NCBI RefSeq assembly: GCF_050920415.1
Contig: NZ_CP169309.1
DNA length: 64,000 nucleotides
From: Escherichia coli
GTDB taxonomy: Bacteria > Pseudomonadota > Gammaproteobacteria > Enterobacterales > Enterobacteriaceae
Reading direction: 5' to 3' (one strand)
A program made the position numbers and the translations under genes. Positions 1 through 7,942 of this stretch are shown here, one piece after another (the stretch's first letter is position 1; each line of letters opens with the position of its first letter). The notes beneath the pieces are model-generated. The model was not told the DNA's origin. It saw only the letters and a program-made list of their open reading frames with translations, and searched no databases.

Positions 1-594
1 TACCGTTGAGTATTTTTTAATAAATGACTCTGCCAGCGGAATAATATCGTTCAGGCGTTCACGCAGTGGCGGCATGGTAATAGGGATAACCGCCAGACGA
101 TAATAGAGATCTTCACGAAAACGTCCGGCGGCAACTTCCTGCTCCAGGTTTTTATTGGTGCAGGCAATCAGGCGAAAATTGAGTTTGATTTGTCGGTTGC
201 TGCCTAATCGCTCAACCTGTTGTTCCTGCAACACGCATAATATTTTGGCCTGTAGCGCCAGCGGCATTTCACCAATTTCATCGAGTAATAAGGTGCCGTT
301 ATTTGCCAGTTCCATTTTTCCTGGCACGCTGGCAATTGCGCCGGTAAATGCACCTTTGTCGTAGCCAAATAACGTCGATTCCAGCATATTTTCCGGGATC
401 GCCGCGCAGTTCACGCCGATATAGGGCGCATTATCATTTTCACCAAAGGCTACGGTGTGAATATATTTCGCCACGCACTCTTTCCCCGCGCCGGTTTCGC
501 CCTGAATCAGGACCGGCACGTTAAAGGCGGCGACACGCTTTGCCAGAGTAAAAGCGTTTATGCTGGAGGCGGCAGATGCAATAAGTTCAGACAT
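1..594 (-). CDS. lafK: Sigma-54-dependent transcriptional activator, partial (runs off window start); begins directly at the AAA+ domain with no receiver domain
   Basis: Minus-strand ATG at 594-592, open to position 1. My translation begins MSELIASAASSINAFTLAKRVAAFNVPVLIQGETGAGKE and contains GAFTGA, both typical of the sigma-54 activator AAA+ domain. Upstream in-frame stop at 672-670 with no other start codon. Divergent from lfiM as in lateral flagellar loci. Confidence 0.6.
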   Translation of the reverse strand, partial: MSELIASAASSINAFTLAKRVAAFNVPVLIQGETGAGKECVAKYIHTVAFGENDNAPYIGVNCAAIPENMLESTLFGYDKGAFTGAIASVPGKMELANNGTLLLDEIGEMPLALQAKILCVLQEQQVERLGSNRQIKLNFRLIACTNKNLEQEVAAGRFREDLYYRLAVIPITMPPLRERLNDIIPLAESFIKKYSTV

Positions 595-720
595 AGGGTG
601 AACAATATAAGTAGCGACAATAATCAGGATGTTCTGAAGCGTATCACCGGCGGGATTAACAAGTTTGAATTAAACGATAATAAAAATATTATTTCATTTT
701 AAACAATGAGTTAGAGTCGT

Positions 721-812
721 ATGGCGGATAAGGTTTTTACGCCGCATCCGGCAATTGTGCACCGGTGCCTGATGCGACGCTGCGCGTCTTATCAGGCCTA
801 CAGGGCGTGCAA
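721..812. repeat. REP/BIME-type extragenic palindromic repeats in the lafK-lfiM intergenic region
   Basis: gccgcatccggca and gcctgatgcgacgctgcgcgtcttatcaggcctaca resemble E. coli REP units. Confidence 0.5.
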
Positions 813-980
813 TGTTTTATGACGATGCCCGATATCTCACCCTTTAATAATTTAATTATTTTTTCACCCTATTAATAATTTGCCCCTTTCACGCCCCGTC
901 TATTTAATACCTCACCTTGTGTCACTGCCGGAATTGCGTGCACAAAAACGCCCATACCATTACAGCAGAGAAAGTAAGCC

Positions 981-1832
981 ATGCTGAAGTACAGTAAAAC
1001 GCCAGGCATCTTTAAATTAGAAGGTAATCGGCTCGGACGCCCCTACCATCGCCTGCCGACCCTGTTTACGGGGAATTTTGACGTGATTGATTCGCATCTC
1101 GGCAGCTACTTTCTCAAAAAGCATCGCAGCAATATCACTTTAAAAAAGATTGGCTGCGAAATGGATATTATTAATAAAAACGCCGAGTTGATGGTTTCCC
1201 AAGTCGGGCATCTGGCATTTGATATCGATCGCTCCTTATTGTTAATGCTGCTGGGCAATTTTTATGGTCTGGAGTCTTCTCTTGAAGAGGCAAAAGCCCA
1301 TAATGGCCTGCCGACCAAAACCGAAACACGATTAAAGAACCGACTCGCGCTGGATATCTGCACGCTGATATTTAATCTGCAAACCTCCGGTATTGCGCTG
1401 AAATTAAAGCTGGACAGCAGCACGGTAATTACCCACTGGGCGTATCAATTAACCTTTACCCTCGCGGGCGATGAAGAGAGCCGTTTTCGTATTTTGCTCG
1501 ACGATGCCCACACCGATTTTATTTTAAATCTGATCCGCCACAGTGAGCACAGTAAACCGCAGCAGGTGGCGAAATCCGTCAACAAGCCGGCACTGATTAA
1601 AGAGATCATCCGCTCTCTGCCGTTGACCCTGAACGTCAAAATCGCCGAGCTGTCGATGAATGTTGCCGATCTGGCGCAGATAAAAGCCGGAGATATTTTA
1701 CCCATCTCGCTGGGAGAAACGTTCCCGGTGGCGATTGGGCAATCTGAATTATTTAGCGCCCTGATTGTGGAAGACAAAGACAAACTGTTTTTGTCGGAGC
1801 TGGCGGGCAAAAATGAGAATAGCCATGAGTAA
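981..1832 (+). CDS. lfiM: Lateral flagellar motor switch protein, FliM-like
   Basis: 283-aa ORF, first gene of a fliMNPQR-flhBA-ordered operon; short FliM-like length. Confidence 0.6.
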   Translation: MLKYSKTPGIFKLEGNRLGRPYHRLPTLFTGNFDVIDSHLGSYFLKKHRSNITLKKIGCEMDIINKNAELMVSQVGHLAFDIDRSLLLMLLGNFYGLESSLEEAKAHNGLPTKTETRLKNRLALDICTLIFNLQTSGIALKLKLDSSTVITHWAYQLTFTLAGDEESRFRILLDDAHTDFILNLIRHSEHSKPQQVAKSVNKPALIKEIIRSLPLTLNVKIAELSMNVADLAQIKAGDILPISLGETFPVAIGQSELFSALIVEDKDKLFLSELAGKNENSHE

Positions 1833-2196
1833 GCAAGAAGATATTTTAACCGGGGATTTTGGCCTCACCGATGACGTTGCGCCTGTCACGAAACCCGCCG
1901 ACGCCGACACGCTGGTCACTCGCCTGGAAGACCGCTTTTCCGACTCGATGACGCTGCTGAAACGCATTCCGGTGACCTTAACGCTGGAAGTGTCGTCGGT
2001 GGAAATCATGTTAGCCGACCTGCTGAACATCGACGACGACACGGTGATTGAGCTGGATAAACTCGCCGGGGAGCCACTGGATATCAAAGTGAACAATATC
2101 CTGCTGGGCAAAGCGGAAGTGGTAGTGGTCAACGAGAAGTACGGCCTGCGCGTGCTGGAGTTTAACACCCGCGATATCAACGACCTGGCACCATGA
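1825..2196 (+). CDS. lfiN: Lateral flagellar motor switch protein, FliN-like
   Basis: ATG at 1825 (MSKQEDIL...), overlaps lfiM end; C-terminal ...VNNILLGKAEVVVVNEKYGLRVLEF resembles the FliN/SpoA domain. Confidence 0.7.
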   Translation: MSKQEDILTGDFGLTDDVAPVTKPADADTLVTRLEDRFSDSMTLLKRIPVTLTLEVSSVEIMLADLLNIDDDTVIELDKLAGEPLDIKVNNILLGKAEVVVVNEKYGLRVLEFNTRDINDLAP

Positions 2197-2945
2197 AACG
2201 CCGCGCTCAACTGACGCTGGGCCTGGCGCTGCTGGCGCTCGCGCCGCTGGCAATCGCCCAGGGCGGTGATATTGCGCTGCTTAACGTGGTCACTCATGGC
2301 AACACTCAGGAATACAGCGTCAAAATCCAGGTTCTGATTCTGATGACCCTCGTCGGTTTGTTGCCGACGATGGTGCTGATGATGACCTGCTTTACGCGCT
2401 TTATTATCGTGCTTTCACTACTGCGCCAGGCGCTGGGGCTGCAACAAACGCCGCCAAACCGCATTCTGATTGGCATTGCGCTCTCCCTCACCCTGCTGGT
2501 GATGCGCCCTGTCTGGCTGAATATTTACGACCACGCGGTGGTGCCGTTCGAAAACGATCAGATTACCCTGACCGATGCGCTAAGCACCGCCGCGACGCCG
2601 CTGAAACGCTTTATGCTGGCGCAGACCGACAAAAAAGCGATGGCGCAAATCATGACCATCGGTGGCGCGAAGGGCAATGCCGCCGACCAGGATCTCTCCA
2701 TCGTGGTGCCCGCCTATGTGCTGAGCGAGCTGAAAACCGCTTTCCAGATTGGCTTTATGATTTACATCCCGTTTCTGGTTATCGACCTGATTGTCGCCAG
2801 CGTATTGATGGCGATGGGGATGATGATGCTGTCGCCGCTGATCGTTTCGCTGCCGTTTAAACTGATGCTGTTTGTGCTGATCGACGGCTGGTCGCTGACC
2901 ATCGGCACGCTCACCACCAGCATTCGCGGGCTGGGGCTGGGCTGA
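2193..2945 (+). CDS. lfiP: Flagellar export apparatus protein, FliP-like
   Basis: 250 aa, signal peptide and multi-TM FliP-like sequence; start overlaps lfiN stop. Confidence 0.8.
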   Translation: MKRRAQLTLGLALLALAPLAIAQGGDIALLNVVTHGNTQEYSVKIQVLILMTLVGLLPTMVLMMTCFTRFIIVLSLLRQALGLQQTPPNRILIGIALSLTLLVMRPVWLNIYDHAVVPFENDQITLTDALSTAATPLKRFMLAQTDKKAMAQIMTIGGAKGNAADQDLSIVVPAYVLSELKTAFQIGFMIYIPFLVIDLIVASVLMAMGMMMLSPLIVSLPFKLMLFVLIDGWSLTIGTLTTSIRGLGLG

Positions 2946-2947
2946 TT

Positions 2948-3220
2948 ATGTTGACCGTAGACGTAGCCGCCGACATTGTCGCCAGCGGCATTAAAGTAGT
3001 GATTTTGCTGGTTTCGGTACTGGTGGTGCCAAGCCTGCTCGTTGGCCTGCTGGTGAGCGTGTTCCAGGCAGTGACGCAGATTAATGAGCAGACACTGAGC
3101 TTTTTACCGAGGCTGATTGTCACGCTGGTGGTGCTGGGGGTGTGCGGTAAATGGATGATTATCCAGTTGCATGATCTCTGCATTCATCTGTTTACCCAGG
3201 CCGCGTTGCTGGTGCATTAA
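2948..3220 (+). CDS. lfiQ: Flagellar export apparatus protein, FliQ-like
   Basis: 90-aa two-TM protein immediately after fliP-like gene. Confidence 0.8.
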   Translation: MLTVDVAADIVASGIKVVILLVSVLVVPSLLVGLLVSVFQAVTQINEQTLSFLPRLIVTLVVLGVCGKWMIIQLHDLCIHLFTQAALLVH

Positions 3221-3221
3221 G

Positions 3222-4004
3222 ATGCGCACAAGCGACGTTACGCAACTGATGGATCTGGCGCTGGGGCTGTGGTTTCCCTTCGTGCGCATTATGGCGTTTC
3301 TGCGCTATGTGCCGGTGCTGGATAACAGCGCCCTGACCGTGCGCGTGCGGATTATTTTGTCGCTGGCGCTGGCAATCATCATCACGCCGTTGATCCCCCA
3401 TCCCATTCCCCACGACCTGCTTTCGCTCAATAGCCTGATCCTGACGGTGGAGCAAATTTTATGGGGCATGTTATTCGGGCTGATTTTTCAGTTCCTGTTT
3501 CTGGCGCTACAGCTGGCCGGGCAAATTCTCTCGTTCAATATGGGGATGAGCATGGCGGTGATGAACGACCCGAGCAGCGGCGCATCGACCACCGTACTGG
3601 CGGAGCTAATCAACGTTTACGCGATCCTGCTGTTTTTTGCCATGGACGGGCATCTGCTGCTGGTGAGCGTGTTGTACAAGGGCTTCACCTACTGGCCGAT
3701 TGGCAACGCCCTGCATCCGCAAACCCTGCGCACCATCGCGCTGGCCTTTAGCTGGGTGCTGGCGTCGGCATCGCTGCTTGCGCTGCCGACCACTTTTATC
3801 ATGCTGATTGTGCAGGGCTGCTTTGGCCTGCTCAACCGCATTGCGCCGCCGCTGAATCTCTTTTCACTTGGCTTTCCCATCAACATGCTGGCAGGGCTGG
3901 TCTGTTTTGCCACCCTGCTCTACAACCTGCCGGATCACTATCTGCATCTGGCGAATTTTGTGTTGCAGCAGCTCGACGCGCTGAAAGGTCACTATGGCGG
4001 ATAG
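3222..4004 (+). CDS. lfiR: Flagellar export apparatus protein, FliR-like
   Basis: ATG at 3222 (MRTSDVTQL...), polytopic membrane protein of about 260 aa in FliR position. Confidence 0.75.
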   Translation: MRTSDVTQLMDLALGLWFPFVRIMAFLRYVPVLDNSALTVRVRIILSLALAIIITPLIPHPIPHDLLSLNSLILTVEQILWGMLFGLIFQFLFLALQLAGQILSFNMGMSMAVMNDPSSGASTTVLAELINVYAILLFFAMDGHLLLVSVLYKGFTYWPIGNALHPQTLRTIALAFSWVLASASLLALPTTFIMLIVQGCFGLLNRIAPPLNLFSLGFPINMLAGLVCFATLLYNLPDHYLHLANFVLQQLDALKGHYGG

Positions 4005-5133
4005 CAGCAGCGAAGAAAAAACAGAGAAACCTTCGGCGCAAAAGCTGCGTAAAGCGCGTGAAGAGGGACAACTGCCGCGCTCGAAGGATATGGGGCTGGC
4101 GGCGAGCCTGTTTGCGGCGTTTGTGGTGATCTCCAGCAGCTTCCCGTGGTATGCCGATTTTGTACGCGAGAGTTTTATCAGCGTGCATCAGTACGCGCAG
4201 GAGATTAATAACCCGGACGTTATCGGCCAGTTTCTGCGCCATCACCTGTTAATTCTCGGCAAGTTTATTCTCACCTTGCTGCCGATGCCCGCCGCCGCAC
4301 TGCTCTCCTCACTGGTGCCTGGCGGCTGGCTGTTCTTGCCGAAAAAAATCCTCCCGGATTTCAGCAAAATCAGTCCGTTAAAAGGCATTGGACGGCTGTT
4401 CTCCAGTGAACATCTTGCGGAAACAGGCAAGATGACGGCGAAGTCGGTGGTGGTGCTGGTGATGCTGTGGATTAGCCTGCGCAATAACTTTGCCGCCTTT
4501 CTCGGCCTGCAGGCGCTGCCGTTCAAACTGGCGATGAATGAGGGTTTGTCGCTCTACGCCAGCGTGATGCGCAACTTTGTCATCCTGTTTATTTTCTTCG
4601 CGCTTATCGACGTGCCGCTGGCGAAAGCCCTGTTCACCAAAGGGCTGAAGATGACTAAGCAGGAGCTGAAAGAAGAGTACAAAAATCAGGAGGGCAAGCC
4701 GGAAGTGAAAGCGCGTGTGCGGCGGCTGCAACGGCAGCTGGCGATGGGGCAAATCCGCAAAGTGGTGCCGAAAGCCAACGTGGTGATCACCAACCCGACC
4801 CACTACGCCGTGGCGTTGCAGTATGACCAGTCGCGCGCCGCCGCGCCGTTTGTAGTGGCAAAAGGTACCGATGAAATCGCCCTCTATATTCGTCAGGTCG
4901 CCACTGAAAATCAGGTGGAAGTGGTCGAGTTCCCGCGGCTGGCGCGCTCGGTTTACTACACCACCCAGGTGAACCAACAAATTCCGTTTCAGCTTTACCG
5001 GGCCATCGCCCACGTTCTGACCTACGTCCTGCAAATGAAACACTGGCGCGAGGGCGCACAGCCGCGCCCGGCCCTGAACAGACATATTTCCATTCCCAAA
5101 GAGGTGCTTAAACTGGATGGCGAAAACAACTAA
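3994..5133 (+). CDS. lfhB: Flagellar export switch protein, FlhB-like
   Basis: 379 aa, N-terminal TM region and FlhB-like C-terminal domain (...NPTHYAVAL...). Confidence 0.85.
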   Translation: MADSSSEEKTEKPSAQKLRKAREEGQLPRSKDMGLAASLFAAFVVISSSFPWYADFVRESFISVHQYAQEINNPDVIGQFLRHHLLILGKFILTLLPMPAAALLSSLVPGGWLFLPKKILPDFSKISPLKGIGRLFSSEHLAETGKMTAKSVVVLVMLWISLRNNFAAFLGLQALPFKLAMNEGLSLYASVMRNFVILFIFFALIDVPLAKALFTKGLKMTKQELKEEYKNQEGKPEVKARVRRLQRQLAMGQIRKVVPKANVVITNPTHYAVALQYDQSRAAAPFVVAKGTDEIALYIRQVATENQVEVVEFPRLARSVYYTTQVNQQIPFQLYRAIAHVLTYVLQMKHWREGAQPRPALNRHISIPKEVLKLDGENN

Positions 5134-7210
5134 ATCGTTCCTCGCGCTGCTGCGCGGCGGTAATCTCGGCGTACCGCTGGTGATCCTGTGTATTCTGGCG
5201 ATGGTTATTCTGCCGCTGCCACCTGCGCTGCTGGATATTCTGTTCACCTTCAACATTGTGCTGGCGGTGATGGTGCTGCTGGTGGCGGTGTCGGCGAAAC
5301 GACCGCTGGAATTCAGCCTGTTCCCGACCATTTTGCTGATCACCACCTTAATGCGCCTGACGCTCAACGTTGCTTCTACGCGCGTGGTGCTGCTGCACGG
5401 GCATCTCGGCGCGGGCGCGGCGGGTAAGGTGATTGAGTCGTTTGGTCAGGTGGTGATTGGCGGCAACTTTGTCGTCGGTTTCGTGGTGTTTATCATCCTG
5501 ATGATCATCAACTTTATCGTCGTCACCAAAGGGGCCGAGCGTATTTCCGAGGTTTCTGCCCGCTTTACCCTGGACGCGATGCCCGGCAAACAGATGGCGA
5601 TTGACGCCGATCTTAACGCCGGGTTGATCAACCAGGCGCAGGCGCAGACCCGCCGCAAAGATGTTGCCAGCGAGGCCGATTTCTACGGCGCAATGGACGG
5701 GGCATCGAAATTTGTGCGCGGGGATGCCATCGCCGGGATGATGATTCTGGCGATCAACCTGATTGGCGGCGTTTGTATCGGGATCTTCAAATACAACCTG
5801 AGCGCCAATGCCGCCTTCCAGCAGTATGTCCTGATGACCATTGGTGACGGGCTGGTAGCGCAGATCCCTTCCCTGCTGCTCTCTACCGCGGCAGCGATTA
5901 TCGTCACCCGCGTCAGCGACAACGGCGATATCGCCCATGATGTGCGCCACCAGCTGCTGGCAAGCCCGTCGGTGCTCTACACCGCCACCGGGATTATGTT
6001 CGTGCTGGCGGTGGTGCCGGGAATGCCGCACTTCCCGTTCCTGATGTTCAGCGCCCTGCTTGGTTTTACCGGCTGGCGAATGAGCAAACGCCCGCAGGCG
6101 GCGGAGGCGGAAGAGAAAAGCCTCGAAACGCTGACCCGCACCATCACCGAAACCAGCGAGCAACAGGTCAGTTGGGAAACCATTCCGCTGATCGAGCCCA
6201 TTAGTTTAAGCCTCGGTTACAAGCTGGTGGCGCTGGTGGACAAAGCGCAGGGTAATCCGCTCACCCAGCGGATTCGCGGCGTGCGGCAGGTGATTTCCGA
6301 CGGCAACGGCGTGCTGCTGCCGGAGATCCGCATTCGGGAAAATTTCCGCCTCAAGCCCAGCCAGTACGCCATTTTCATCAACGGCATTAAGGCTGATGAA
6401 GCGGATATTCCGGCGGATAAGCTGATGGCTCTGCCCTCCAGCGAAACCTACGGCGAGATTGACGGCGTGCTGGGGAACGACCCGGCGTATGGGATGCCGG
6501 TGACCTGGATTCAGCCCGCGCAGAAGGCGAAGGCGCTGAATATGGGGTATCAGGTGATCGACAGCGCCAGCGTAATTGCCACACATGTGAATAAGATTGT
6601 GCGCAGCTATATTCCTGATTTGTTTAACTATGACGATATTACTCAGCTGCATAACCGTTTGTCGTCGATGGCACCGCGCCTGGCGGAGGATTTGAGTGCG
6701 GCGCTGAATTACAGCCAGTTGCTGAAAGTGTACCGGGCACTGCTGACCGAAGGCGTTTCCCTGCGCGATATCGTCACCATCGCCACCGTGCTGGTCGCCA
6801 GTAGTACCGTCACCAAAGATCATATTCTGCTGGCGGCCGATGTGCGCCTGGCACTGCGGCGCAGCATTACCCATCCGTTCGTTCGCAAGCAGGAGCTGAC
6901 GGTGTATACGCTGAATAATGAGCTGGAAAACCTGCTGACCAACGTGGTGAATCAGGCGCAACAGGCTGGCAAAGTGATGCTCGATAGCGTGCCGGTGGAC
7001 CCGAATATGCTCAACCAGTTCCAGAACACGATGCCGCAGGTGAAGGAGCAGATGAAAGCCGCAGGTAAAGACCCGGTGCTGCTGGTGCCGCCGCAGCTGC
7101 GCCCATTGCTGGCGCGTTATGCGAAGTTGTTTGCGCCGGGGTTGCATGTGCTGTCGTATAACGAAGTGCCGGACGAGCTGGAGTTGAAGATTATGGGGGC
7201 GTTGAGTTGA
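5117..7210 (+). CDS. lfhA: Flagellar export gate protein, FlhA-like, full length
   Basis: 697 aa with FlhA-like TM region and cytoplasmic domain; uninterrupted ORF. Confidence 0.85.
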   Translation: MAKTTKSFLALLRGGNLGVPLVILCILAMVILPLPPALLDILFTFNIVLAVMVLLVAVSAKRPLEFSLFPTILLITTLMRLTLNVASTRVVLLHGHLGAGAAGKVIESFGQVVIGGNFVVGFVVFIILMIINFIVVTKGAERISEVSARFTLDAMPGKQMAIDADLNAGLINQAQAQTRRKDVASEADFYGAMDGASKFVRGDAIAGMMILAINLIGGVCIGIFKYNLSANAAFQQYVLMTIGDGLVAQIPSLLLSTAAAIIVTRVSDNGDIAHDVRHQLLASPSVLYTATGIMFVLAVVPGMPHFPFLMFSALLGFTGWRMSKRPQAAEAEEKSLETLTRTITETSEQQVSWETIPLIEPISLSLGYKLVALVDKAQGNPLTQRIRGVRQVISDGNGVLLPEIRIRENFRLKPSQYAIFINGIKADEADIPADKLMALPSSETYGEIDGVLGNDPAYGMPVTWIQPAQKAKALNMGYQVIDSASVIATHVNKIVRSYIPDLFNYDDITQLHNRLSSMAPRLAEDLSAALNYSQLLKVYRALLTEGVSLRDIVTIATVLVASSTVTKDHILLAADVRLALRRSITHPFVRKQELTVYTLNNELENLLTNVVNQAQQAGKVMLDSVPVDPNMLNQFQNTMPQVKEQMKAAGKDPVLLVPPQLRPLLARYAKLFAPGLHVLSYNEVPDELELKIMGALS

Positions 7211-7293: not shown

Positions 7294-7593
7294 ATGACGT
7301 CATGGATTGATAGTATGATTAAGGTCAGCGCGCTAGGCTCTCGTCATAGAAAAACATTCGACGATGTAATGACGGAGCCGCCAAAATCTGGAATTAAATG
7401 GGATGATGTTGTTGCTCTCATTAAAGCGGTGGGTGGATCAATAAAAAATAACAACGGCTCCAGACGAAAATTTCAGATTGGAACGACCAAATTCAGCACA
7501 CATGAGCCGCATCCAAAGAATGTGATGGATAAAGGCGCAGTAGCAGGTCTTAAGGAGTGGTTTGTTAACTGTGTAGGGGTAGATTATGAATAA
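7294..7593 (+). CDS. HicA-like toxin (putative mRNA interferase) with N-terminal extension; alternative start ATG 7315
   Basis: ...GGSIKNNNGSRRKFQIGTTKFSTHEPHPKNVMDKGAVAGLKEW resembles the HicA/YcfA fold pattern; overlaps the downstream antitoxin-like gene by 8 bp. Confidence 0.5.
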   Translation: MTSWIDSMIKVSALGSRHRKTFDDVMTEPPKSGIKWDDVVALIKAVGGSIKNNNGSRRKFQIGTTKFSTHEPHPKNVMDKGAVAGLKEWFVNCVGVDYE

Positions 7594-7942
7594 AGCATCG
7601 AACATTATCACAATTAAAGGTCAACCAGCCGCAGTGACATTTGAAGCCGATATCAACGCATTTCGCGGCAAGTTCCTCAATGTAAACGGTTATTGTGACT
7701 TTGTAGCCACAAGTATTGAGGCATTATATCGTGAAGGCGAAAGCGCTCTGGATGAGTGGATGGCGGATTGTGAAGAGGACGGTATTGCCCCTTTTCGTGA
7801 AGAAGAAGAGCAAAAACGCCTGACGCTTCGTGTGCCGCATCACATCGATTCGCGGCTGACCATCGTCGCCAGACAACATTCCATTTCAAAAAACCAGCTC
7901 ATTATTGATGTCTTAGAACGTGAGTTTTCAGCCCAGATGTAA
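7586..7942 (+). CDS. HicB-like antitoxin with C-terminal ribbon-helix-helix DNA-binding domain
   Basis: 118 aa; C-terminal KRLTLRVPHHIDSRLTIVARQHSISKNQLIIDVLEREF is RHH-like; N-terminal part HicB-like; translationally coupled to the upstream toxin-like ORF. Confidence 0.55.
   Translation: MNKASNIITIKGQPAAVTFEADINAFRGKFLNVNGYCDFVATSIEALYREGESALDEWMADCEEDGIAPFREEEEQKRLTLRVPHHIDSRLTIVARQHSISKNQLIIDVLEREFSAQM

Follow-up and report, generated by a model that had tools for sequence, protein, structure and literature searches.

E. coli Flag-2, a lateral-type flagellar system, has been described previously (De Maayer et al. 2020, PMC6993521), and decay or loss of the locus is common in E. coli and its relatives (PMC6993521; PMC11420993). 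In Y. enterocolitica, Flag-2 is at its highest at 20 °C (PMC11420993). Its sigma-54 activator, LafK, has been grouped with PspF and HrpR/S among the activators without a signal domain (Francke et al. 2011, PMC3162934); the absence of a sensor domain from LafK is thus already known from the literature. In Vibrio, the fliM_L operon is LafK-independent (PMC3930126). In the literature searched, we found no experimental data on the Flag-2 hierarchy of E. coli.

We analysed positions 1-7210 of a 64,000-nucleotide stretch of E. coli DNA (contig NZ_CP169309.1; the whole stretch is hereafter the window). This region is the lfhA-proximal end of Flag-2 cluster 1. We are fairly confident of the overall explanation developed below, in which a known system carries an ancestral, receiver-less LafK whose activity is set by dose, and is weakened in this strain by a substitution, R120C, in that regulator.

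Gene content and distribution of the locus

Seven intact genes, lfiM, lfiN, lfiP, lfiQ, lfiR, lfhB and lfhA, were read as ORFs on the plus strand (Table 1), and the annotation of the nearest genome, NZ_CP169399.1, has intact CDS at identical coordinates. The Pfam models for FliP, FliR, FlhB and FHIPEP are covered essentially end to end by the proteins of the locus, and neither the ORFs nor the Pfam alignments revealed a frameshift in the flagellar genes. The proposal made from the sequence alone, of a Flag-2 locus with full-length lfhA and uninterrupted lfiMNPQR-lfhBA, is thus upheld.

Table 1. Features of the lfhA-proximal end of Flag-2 cluster 1 (window coordinates).
Feature	Position	Strand	Description
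lafK, codons 1-198 of 328	1-594	-	sigma-54 activator; continues beyond the left end of the window
divergent lafK/lfiM control region	595-980	.	386 bp
REP/BIME-type palindromic elements	740-800	.	within the lafK/lfiM intergenic region
lfiM	981-1832	+	283 aa, C-ring switch protein; Pfam match confined to the FliMN_C part
lfiN	1825-2196	+	123 aa, FliN-type switch protein
lfiP	2193-2945	+	250 aa, export gate FliP; Pfam FliP 1-191/191
lfiQ	2948-3220	+	90 aa, export gate FliQ
lfiR	3222-4004	+	260 aa, export gate FliR; Pfam FliR 4-226/230
lfhB	3994-5133	+	379 aa, export switch FlhB; Pfam FlhB 1-335/335
lfhA	5117-7210	+	697 aa, full-length export gate FlhA; Pfam FHIPEP 1-656/657

The locus occupies the chromosomal site flanked by yafL and dinB, which in K-12 contains the lfhA' and lafU' remnants. 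As the sequence-only reading had stated for lfhA, K-12 keeps nothing more: in MG1655 an lfhA pseudogene of 1713 bp abuts a lafU pseudogene. Some match to the 7.3 kb stretch was found in 5387 of 5426 complete E. coli genomes, and 1284 (~24%) cover at least 80% of it.

The cluster 1 order lfhA-lfhB-lfiR-Q-P-N-M, divergent from lafK-lfiE and the genes that follow, is present. Gene order, orientation and the yafL-dinB site are those of the other E. coli Flag-2 loci (PMC6993521), from most of which this lineage differs in having a DNA identity of only about 95-97%. It also differs from them by the LafK substitution R120C. The same cluster 1 order occurs in Citrobacter, Atlantibacter, Budvicia and Hafnia, and the divergent arrangement of lfiM and lafK-lfiE on either side of a spacer is identical in four other genera. 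The nearest genome is 99.96% identical to the window over the 27.3 kb common to both, with 2 SNPs across the first 18.5 kb. The window itself starts inside lafK, and the remainder of the cluster was read from that genome. Its annotation shows no pseudogenes in the 42 kb that extend from lafU to lfhA, and it includes the Flag-2-specific lafK, lafW and lafZ as well as clusters 2 and 3. In this relative, an inserted restriction-modification pair also separates lfgA from lfgM.

LafK begins at its AAA+ domain

In the lafK frame, the ATG at 592-594 is the sole canonical start. The upstream limit is a TAA 24 codons away, and the open codons in between contain no in-frame ATG, GTG or TTG; no Shine-Dalgarno sequence precedes the ATG. 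The start at 594 is, as had been proposed, the only plausible one. LafK is 328 aa long in the nearest genome, from which the part beyond the 198 codons inside the window was inferred. Its Pfam domains are Sigma54_activat (PF00158, residues 6-172; 216.9 bits against a cut-off of 20.2), AAA_lid (178-246) and HTH_8 (284-317), with nothing N-terminal of these, which bears out the suggestion that the protein lacks a receiver or other sensory domain. All the bEBP membership motifs could be read directly: Walker A at residues 32-39 (window 478-501, minus strand), the GAFTGA sigma-54 contact loop at 81-86 (337-354, minus strand), Walker B at D105/E106 and RxDxxxR at 160-166.

Orthology with Vibrio LafK is indicated both by best similarity and by gene position, upstream of the fliE_L counterpart and divergent from the fliM_L counterpart, although the motY_L gene that stands in front of lafK in Vibrio is missing in E. 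coli. Residues 1-328 of the E. coli protein align to 123-438 of Vibrio campbellii LafK (444 aa) with 48% identity. Because the alignment starts at Vibrio residue 123, what E. coli LafK lacks is exactly the degenerate receiver-like N-terminal domain of ~122 residues found in Vibrio, a domain that is itself weak (residues 7-113 of V. campbellii LafK give a sub-threshold Response_reg match of 22.3 bits against a cut-off of 30.2). The full-length Vibrionaceae orthologues among those listed are mostly 441-456 aa long. Against receiver-containing models, the LafK match begins only at profile positions ~120-141.

With its AAA+ domain, lid and Fis-type HTH, LafK is identical to PspF (325 aa) in layout and matches it in size: all catalytic motifs align, identity over the AAA+ domain is 42%, the alignment starts at PspF residue 8, and the NCBIfam pspF model PRK11608 is matched over positions 7-326 of 329. 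With no N-terminal domain and a C-terminal HTH_8, LafK falls into the sensor-less type Ic bEBPs (PspF, HrpR/S). It is, however, not a PspF orthologue, as its scores with the NCBIfam pspF models (207-238 bits) fall far below the cut-offs (443-529), and its gene lies in a flagellar operon, without pspF's neighbour pspA beside it. By sequence, the closest solved structure is the AAA+ domain of V. cholerae FlrC (4qhs, 256 bits), and P. aeruginosa FleR is ~48% identical. FlrC and FleR possess a phosphorylatable receiver domain and a cognate kinase, whereas LafK has neither. An Aeromonas search matched a single record, from A. caviae (filed in PLSDB); it holds the polar flrABC, and its FlrC was rejected as an Aeromonas LafK, being polar rather than lateral. 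A lateral lafK was not found there.

The receiver-less form is probably ancestral in enterobacterial Flag-2

A receiver domain might still be encoded upstream of lafK, through a non-canonical start or as a remnant, and this was looked for. Comparison of the N-terminal 130 residues of the Vibrio protein with window positions 500-1100 (tblastn, six-frame reading) gave only noise (best E = 0.57), and both possibilities were rejected, there being no in-frame start codon either. The 104 enterobacterial homologues (324-364 aa; Citrobacter, Leminorella, Atlantibacter, Budvicia, Hafnia, Pantoea and others) are equally devoid of an N-terminal domain (0 of 104), about half having the same first Met and the others being extended by up to ~25 residues. 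The short LafK is therefore not a start-codon artefact. As judged from these sequences, enterobacterial LafK is built in this conserved way throughout, and the short form is not peculiar to this locus. Four longer homologues (P0049, P0067, P0120 and P0079; 462-521 aa, 60-73% identical) were rejected as a long form of LafK. They are assembly chimeras, in which an N-terminal half from NtrC, TyrR or another response regulator is fused to the C-terminal part of LafK, with joints inside conserved AAA+ sequence (at FREDL in three of the four).

One might still regard the short lafK as the decayed relic of a cryptic locus whose receiver was recently lost, for instance through a REP insertion, given the REP/BIME elements in the spacer, the ATG without a Shine-Dalgarno sequence and the frequent degradation of Flag-2 (PMC6993521; PMC11420993). 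We consider this highly improbable. Many enterobacterial genera have the same domain-less LafK, 59-99% identical (95-99% within the 328-aa LafK cluster of E. coli) and with both Walker motifs, GAFTGA, RxDxxxR and HTH preserved, while the lafK/lfiM spacers of those genera are unrelated in both sequence and length. No coding trace of a receiver lies upstream, and the cluster still has conserved sigma-54 promoters (see below). Rather than a truncation peculiar to this strain, the receiver-less LafK is best read as ancestral to enterobacterial Flag-2 as a whole.

A private substitution at a catalytic arginine

The sole unusual feature of the locus, and its one new point, lies in lafK codon 120 (window 235-237, minus strand), which is TGC (Cys) here and CGC (Arg) in all other sequences examined. 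Every one of the 106 homologues has arginine at this position, as does the nearest genome, and none of the 5426 complete E. coli genomes shares the allele. Arg120, in the LLRVLQE helix, is equivalent to PspF R122, an invariant residue needed for ATP hydrolysis. Cys120 in the LafK of the window thus departs from the invariant arginine of bEBPs, which bears on activity and not on family membership. In PspF, R122A lowers the ATPase Vmax from 39.5 to 1.26 per min, a ~30-fold cut; R122A and R122E were studied, and Cys was absent from the substitutions tested (PMC3419264). The sequence-only reading had supposed that a LafK without a sensory domain would be constitutively active or partner-controlled, a reasonable proposal by analogy with PspF and HrpR/S. 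That an invariant catalytic residue is replaced speaks against constitutive activity of LafK in this strain. By the same analogy with PspF, R120C probably weakens the protein here, and it may have disabled the regulator instead of leaving it permanently active.

The substitution could also be a sequencing or assembly error, LafK being wild type in this strain. The allele is unique among the 5426 genomes, and half of the 10 differences to the nearest genome over 27.3 kb are indels of 1-2 bp, typical of noisy assemblies, which suggests noise in one or both of the sequences. In long-read assemblies, on the other hand, substitution errors are rarer than indels; the base in question is a clean transition in unique sequence, and the nearest genome has a reciprocal private SNP (lfiM A204V), as expected of two real close isolates. 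An error is unlikely on balance, though it is an alternative to be taken seriously, and we regard R120C as more probably a genuine allele.

Candidate promoters and the control of LafK

We scanned for sigma-54 promoters with the consensus TGGCACG-N4-TTGCW, scored out of 12 points. The -24/-12 promoter for which a search before lfiM had been suggested is absent: positions 594-981 hold no site with up to 2 mismatches before either lfiM or lafK, and a relaxed scan of the spacer reached only 7/12 at best. This agrees with the LafK-independence of the Vibrio fliM_L operon. Nor could a sigma-70 promoter be retained, as the sole match in the spacer (665-692, plus strand) is weak and no better than shuffled sequence gives. 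Three further Flag-2 strains of E. coli also have a spacer of 386 bp.

Elsewhere in the cluster, three sites score 11/12, on the correct strand and 30-55 bp upstream of lfgB, lafB and the VR1 gene after lfgN. Shuffles give an expectation of 0.245 such sites per 42.5 kb, and all three are conserved in a second strain that is only 95% identical. The cluster thus contains candidate cognate -24/-12 promoters, whose use by LafK is predicted.

From these elements an outline of the system can be proposed. The genes lfiMNPQR-lfhBA form one operon for the C-ring and the type III export gate, beside the start of the divergent lafK-lfiEFGHIJ operon. As LafK has no cis-acting sensor, its activity would most likely be set by the amount made, from a promoter within the lafK/lfiM spacer that does not depend on sigma-54. 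The LafK produced would assemble, hydrolyse ATP and open the promoters of lfgB (rod and hook operon), of the lafB operon (filament cap, the sigma-28 gene lafS and stator) and of the first VR1 gene. Its regulon would include neither the lfiM export-gate operon nor lafK. In this strain, R120C, at the equivalent of PspF R122, would cause a large drop in ATPase activity and leave Flag-2 weak or silent despite intact structural genes.

Receiver deletion activates bEBPs of the NtrC1 and DctD types and inactivates those of the NtrC type, and sequence alone cannot assign the AAA+ core of LafK to either behaviour. Isolated FlrC AAA+ domains form heptamers unaided (PMC10696123). A constitutive and a dose-controlled LafK are both proposed by analogy.

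Alternatively, LafK might be restrained in trans by a dedicated anti-activator that couples Flag-2 to a signal. There are precedents in PspA for PspF, HrpV for HrpS and FleN for FleQ; the architecture of LafK is that of the partner-controlled PspF and HrpR/S (PMC3162934; PMC3791423; PMC3105312), and among the products of the cluster are several uncharacterised small proteins and a CadC/ToxR-like membrane regulator, LafZ. However, the annotation of the 42-kb cluster shows no homologue of FleN/FlhG, PspA or HrpV, PspF W56, which contacts PspA, aligns to an Asp in LafK, and no co-evolving partner of LafK was identified. LafZ is a DNA-binding protein, and a promoter is a more likely target for it than LafK itself. 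A tblastn search for a Vibrio LafZ in a plasmid collection gave winged-helix matches only. We find such an anti-activator improbable. It is a little more doubtful still that the receiver input was exchanged for LafZ-driven transcription of lafK or for an anti-activator, with mutations like R120C recurrently silencing intact Flag-2 clusters. Control of LafK by dose is the reading that we retain.

Implications

Beyond annotation, the locus has little significance, as both Flag-2 and its patchy occurrence have been thoroughly described and LafK already figures among the sensor-less activators. The three conserved sigma-54 candidates, together with the absence of such sites before lfiM and lafK, suggest in outline a Flag-2 hierarchy for E. 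coli that can be tested. An "intact" Flag-2 cluster should not be assumed to be expressible, since here the sole regulator is substituted at the counterpart of an ATPase-critical residue, and Flag-2 surveys that score just frameshifts and deletions would miss alleles such as R120C.

An intact Flag-2 locus

ORF calling over window 1-7210 gave seven tightly packed ORFs on the plus strand, whose products all cover Pfam families over essentially the full model length (see table). The sequence-only reading had claimed a Flag-2 locus with a full-length lfhA and uninterrupted lfiMNPQR-lfhBA genes, where K-12 keeps only an lfhA remnant, and all of this was borne out: at the same site, K-12 MG1655 carries a 1713-bp lfhA pseudogene fused to the lafU pseudogene. 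With a 7.3-kb query, identity is 99.97% to E. coli MFDS1022581 (NZ_CP169399.1, the nearest genome) and 95-97% to other strains, and the NZ_CP169399.1 annotation has the same seven genes, plus a 328-aa "sigma-54 interaction domain-containing protein", at the same coordinates. In this genome the whole cluster, of about 42 kb from lafU to lfhA, lies between dinB and yafL and bears no pseudogene flags. Some part of the query is matched in 5387 of the 5426 complete E. coli genomes, and at least 80% of it is covered in 1284 (24%). The match to an annotated cluster, the K-12 remnant and this distribution thus identify the locus as an ordinary, already described Flag-2 system (PMC6993521; PMC11420993).

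Some neighbouring features are also of note. In Pfam, LfiM (283 aa) is matched by the C-terminal FliMN_C model alone and not by the FliM model, and by eye no CheY-binding motif is obvious at its N-terminus. The four Flag-2-positive strains inspected all carry a hicA/hicB toxin-antitoxin pair (window 7315-7942) immediately after lfhA; in K-12 its place is taken by rayT, a REP-associated transposase, with extra yafQ-dinJ and yafNO modules nearby. Around the site, toxin-antitoxin content differs according to whether the locus is present. Within Flag-2, between lfgA and lfgM, the nearest genome carries a DNA cytosine methyltransferase and a type II restriction endonuclease (upstream of the window; L001 4747-7463, L001 and L002 being stretches of NZ_CP169399.1). 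Strain 05-3629 is without this pair, its lfgA-lfgM gap being 80 bp.

Features of the Flag-2 locus (lfi and lfh genes in window coordinates; LafK in residues; sigma-54 sites in NZ_CP169399.1, local coordinates in brackets)
Feature	Position	Strand	Evidence
lfiM	981-1832	+	ORF; FliMN_C match (Pfam)
lfiN	1825-2196	+	ORF; FliMN_C match (Pfam)
lfiP	2193-2945	+	ORF; FliP model 1-191/191 (Pfam)
lfiQ	2948-3220	+	ORF; Bac_export_3 model 3-72/74 (Pfam)
lfiR	3222-4004	+	ORF; Bac_export_1 model 4-226/230 (Pfam)
lfhB	3994-5133	+	ORF; Bac_export_2 model 1-335/335 (Pfam)
lfhA, 697 aa	5117-7210	+	ORF; FHIPEP model 1-656/657 (Pfam)
LafK Sigma54_activat	6-172		Pfam, 216.9 bits
LafK AAA_lid_14	178-246		Pfam
LafK HTH_8	284-317		Pfam
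LafK Walker A (GETGAGKE)	32-39		direct reading
LafK GAFTGA	81-86		direct reading
LafK Walker B	D105/E106		direct reading
LafK RxDxxxR motif	160-166		direct reading
sigma-54 site, lfgB	4073399-4073414 (L001 3776-3791)	-	TGGCACAGCGATTGCT; 11/12 consensus match
sigma-54 site, lafB/fliD	4060738-4060753 (L002 16739-16754)	-	TGGCACGCCTTTTGCC; 11/12 consensus match
sigma-54 site, first VR1 gene after lfgN	4078053-4078068 (L001 8430-8445)	+	CGGCACGCTTATTGCA; 11/12 consensus match

A receiver-less LafK is a family trait

The lafK frame is open on the minus strand from an ATG at 592-594 and leaves the window at its left end; as the window holds codons 1-198 only, the full-length sequence used is that of the nearest genome. 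Above this ATG the frame is open for only 24 codons, back to a TAA, with no in-frame ATG, GTG or TTG, which agrees with the earlier view of 594 as the only canonical start. Also upheld was the claim that LafK begins at its AAA+ domain, as Pfam finds no domain N-terminal to Sigma54_activat in the full 328-aa protein. The alignment with E. coli PspF starts at PspF residue 8, and positions 7-326 of 329 of the NCBIfam pspF model PRK11608 are aligned, whereas in the receiver-containing models (FlbD, NtrC, PEP-CTERM regulator) the alignment begins only around profile positions 120-141. Among solved structures, the V. cholerae FlrC AAA+ domain (4qhs, 256 bits) is closest in sequence. No Shine-Dalgarno-like purine run precedes the ATG (…TATATTGTTCACCCT ATG; window 560-594, minus strand), and the lafK starts of other genera are also weakly served.

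The lateral-flagellar LafK of V. campbellii (444 aa) is encoded downstream of motY_L and upstream of fliE_L-fliF_L-fliG_L, divergently from fliM_L, on a chromosome 2 filed as a plasmid (PLSDB lists two such chromosomes, NZ_CP050465.1 of V. campbellii, 2.06 Mb, and NZ_AP026896.1 of A. caviae, 4.94 Mb). It aligns end to end with the AtoC, ZraR, NtrX and GlrR models, and its residues 7-113 match Response_reg weakly (22.3 bits, below the 30.2 cut-off). Its residues 123-438 correspond to E. coli residues 1-328 at 48% identity, and full-length Vibrionaceae orthologues, among those listed, are mostly of 441-456 aa; the enterobacterial protein thus lacks exactly the receiver-like domain. An N-terminal domain encoded upstream would have contradicted this, but window 500-1100 holds no trace of the Vibrio one (best tblastn E = 0.57).

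The 120 top-ranking relatives in the database all come from enterobacteria (Citrobacter, Leminorella, Enterobacter, Pseudescherichia, Scandinavium, Atlantibacter, Siccibacter, Budvicia, Pantoea, Hafnia, Pragia, Erwinia, Regiella), and nearly all of them are 324-348 aa long and carry the three Pfam domains of LafK. About half of the 104 that were aligned share the first Met, and the remainder (more distant ones and a few closer gene calls) have extensions of up to about 25 residues that contain no domain. The arrangement, with lfiM divergent across a spacer from lafK-lfiE-F-G-H-I, is identical in four other genera, where no genes are called in the 434-641-bp lafK/lfiM spacers. Comparison across the family thus shows that the short form is real. 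Four long relatives of 462-521 aa (P0049, P0067, P0120 and P0079), candidates for a LafK with a REC or ACT domain, were rejected as metagenome assembly chimeras: their N-terminal part comes from NtrC, TyrR or another response regulator and gives way to the C-terminal part of LafK inside conserved AAA+ sequence, three of them switching at FREDL. The trait has already been noted in the literature: Francke et al. 2011 (PMC3162934) place LafK beside PspF and HrpR/S among the activators that have no signal-recognition domain. De Maayer et al. 2020 (PMC6993521) used LafK, whose amino-acid identity over 461 strains is 67%, as a Flag-2 marker.

Promoters and control of LafK

The sequence-only reading had suggested a search for a -24/-12 promoter before lfiM, which proved absent: TGGCAC-N5-TTGCW with at most two mismatches has no match in window 594-981, and a relaxed scan of the spacer reached 7/12 at best. 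This is no argument against LafK function, because the V. parahaemolyticus fliM_L operon is LafK-independent (PMC3930126) and Aeromonas lafK is sigma-70-dependent (PMC4481668). Elsewhere in the nearest genome's cluster there are three candidate, near-consensus sigma-54 sites, all of which keep the GG and GC. Each precedes the first gene of an operon by 30-55 bp and is on the correct strand, for a chance expectation of 0.245 per 42.5 kb (shuffles). All three keep their positions in strain 05-3629, which has just 95% identity across Flag-2. Every E. coli strain checked has a lafK-lfiM spacer of 386 bp, shorter than in the other genera, and REP/BIME-type palindromes lie in the spacer at window 740-800 (e.g. 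GCCTGATGCGACGC / GCGTCTTATCAGGC). As lafK ends 14 bp before lfiE (NZ_CP169399.1), lfiE-J are most simply co-transcribed with it.

A LafK without a receiver had been proposed to be either constitutively active or partner-controlled, and the interpretation as a whole holds in part. Given the lack of a cis sensor and the intact catalytic core, LafK most likely behaves like PspF or HrpR/S: it would be active as soon as it is produced, and regulation would fall on its production or come in trans. FlrC and NtrC1, the nearest structural relatives of LafK, have AAA+ domains that self-assemble into heptamers when isolated (PMC10696123). Control via lafK expression is tentatively favoured: (i) the annotation of the nearest genome's cluster shows no homologue of FleN, PspA or HrpV, (ii) the PspA-contact residue of PspF, W56, aligns to an Asp in LafK, and (iii) LafZ, a CadC/ToxR-like winged-helix protein also encoded in the cluster, has one transmembrane segment and could plausibly act as an upstream input.

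A probable strain-specific substitution in LafK

Only two positions differ between the window and the nearest genome in the first 18.5 kb. At 1591 the window has the common allele, lfiM A204V being private to the nearest genome; at 237, lafK codon 120 (window 235-237, minus strand) is changed in the window from CGC (Arg) to TGC (Cys). All 106 aligned homologues, that of Vibrio among them, have Arg here, as do three more E. coli strains. The window's 60-mer around the codon is absent from all 5426 complete E. coli genomes, 240 of which match it with exactly one mismatch.

Over 27.3 kb the two genomes show 10 differences, of which 5 are 1-2-bp indels; at least one of the assemblies must therefore contain errors, a caveat on the R120C base call, and the indels point to assembly noise in one or the other. 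The other differences (1-2-bp indels and SNPs at window 18572, 21996, 25800-25801, 26568 and 25877, 26172, 26572) fall in the group II intron ltrA, the Tle1/DUF3304 T6SS effector region and an IS21 copy. At window 22026-23673, tandem DUF3304 genes (copies 86-88% identical) adjoin a Tle1-like T6SS phospholipase effector, according to the nearest genome's annotation.

The aligned PspF residue is R122, whose replacement lowers ATPase Vmax about 30-fold, from 39.5 per min to 1.26 (R122A) and 0.95 (R122E), R122E also abolishing sigma-54 engagement (PMC3419264). By analogy, if the base call is right, the window strain probably has a hypomorphic or null LafK, and this probable loss-of-function missense is the only strain-specific item of the feature. 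The structurally intact Flag-2 genes would then be poorly expressed in this strain.
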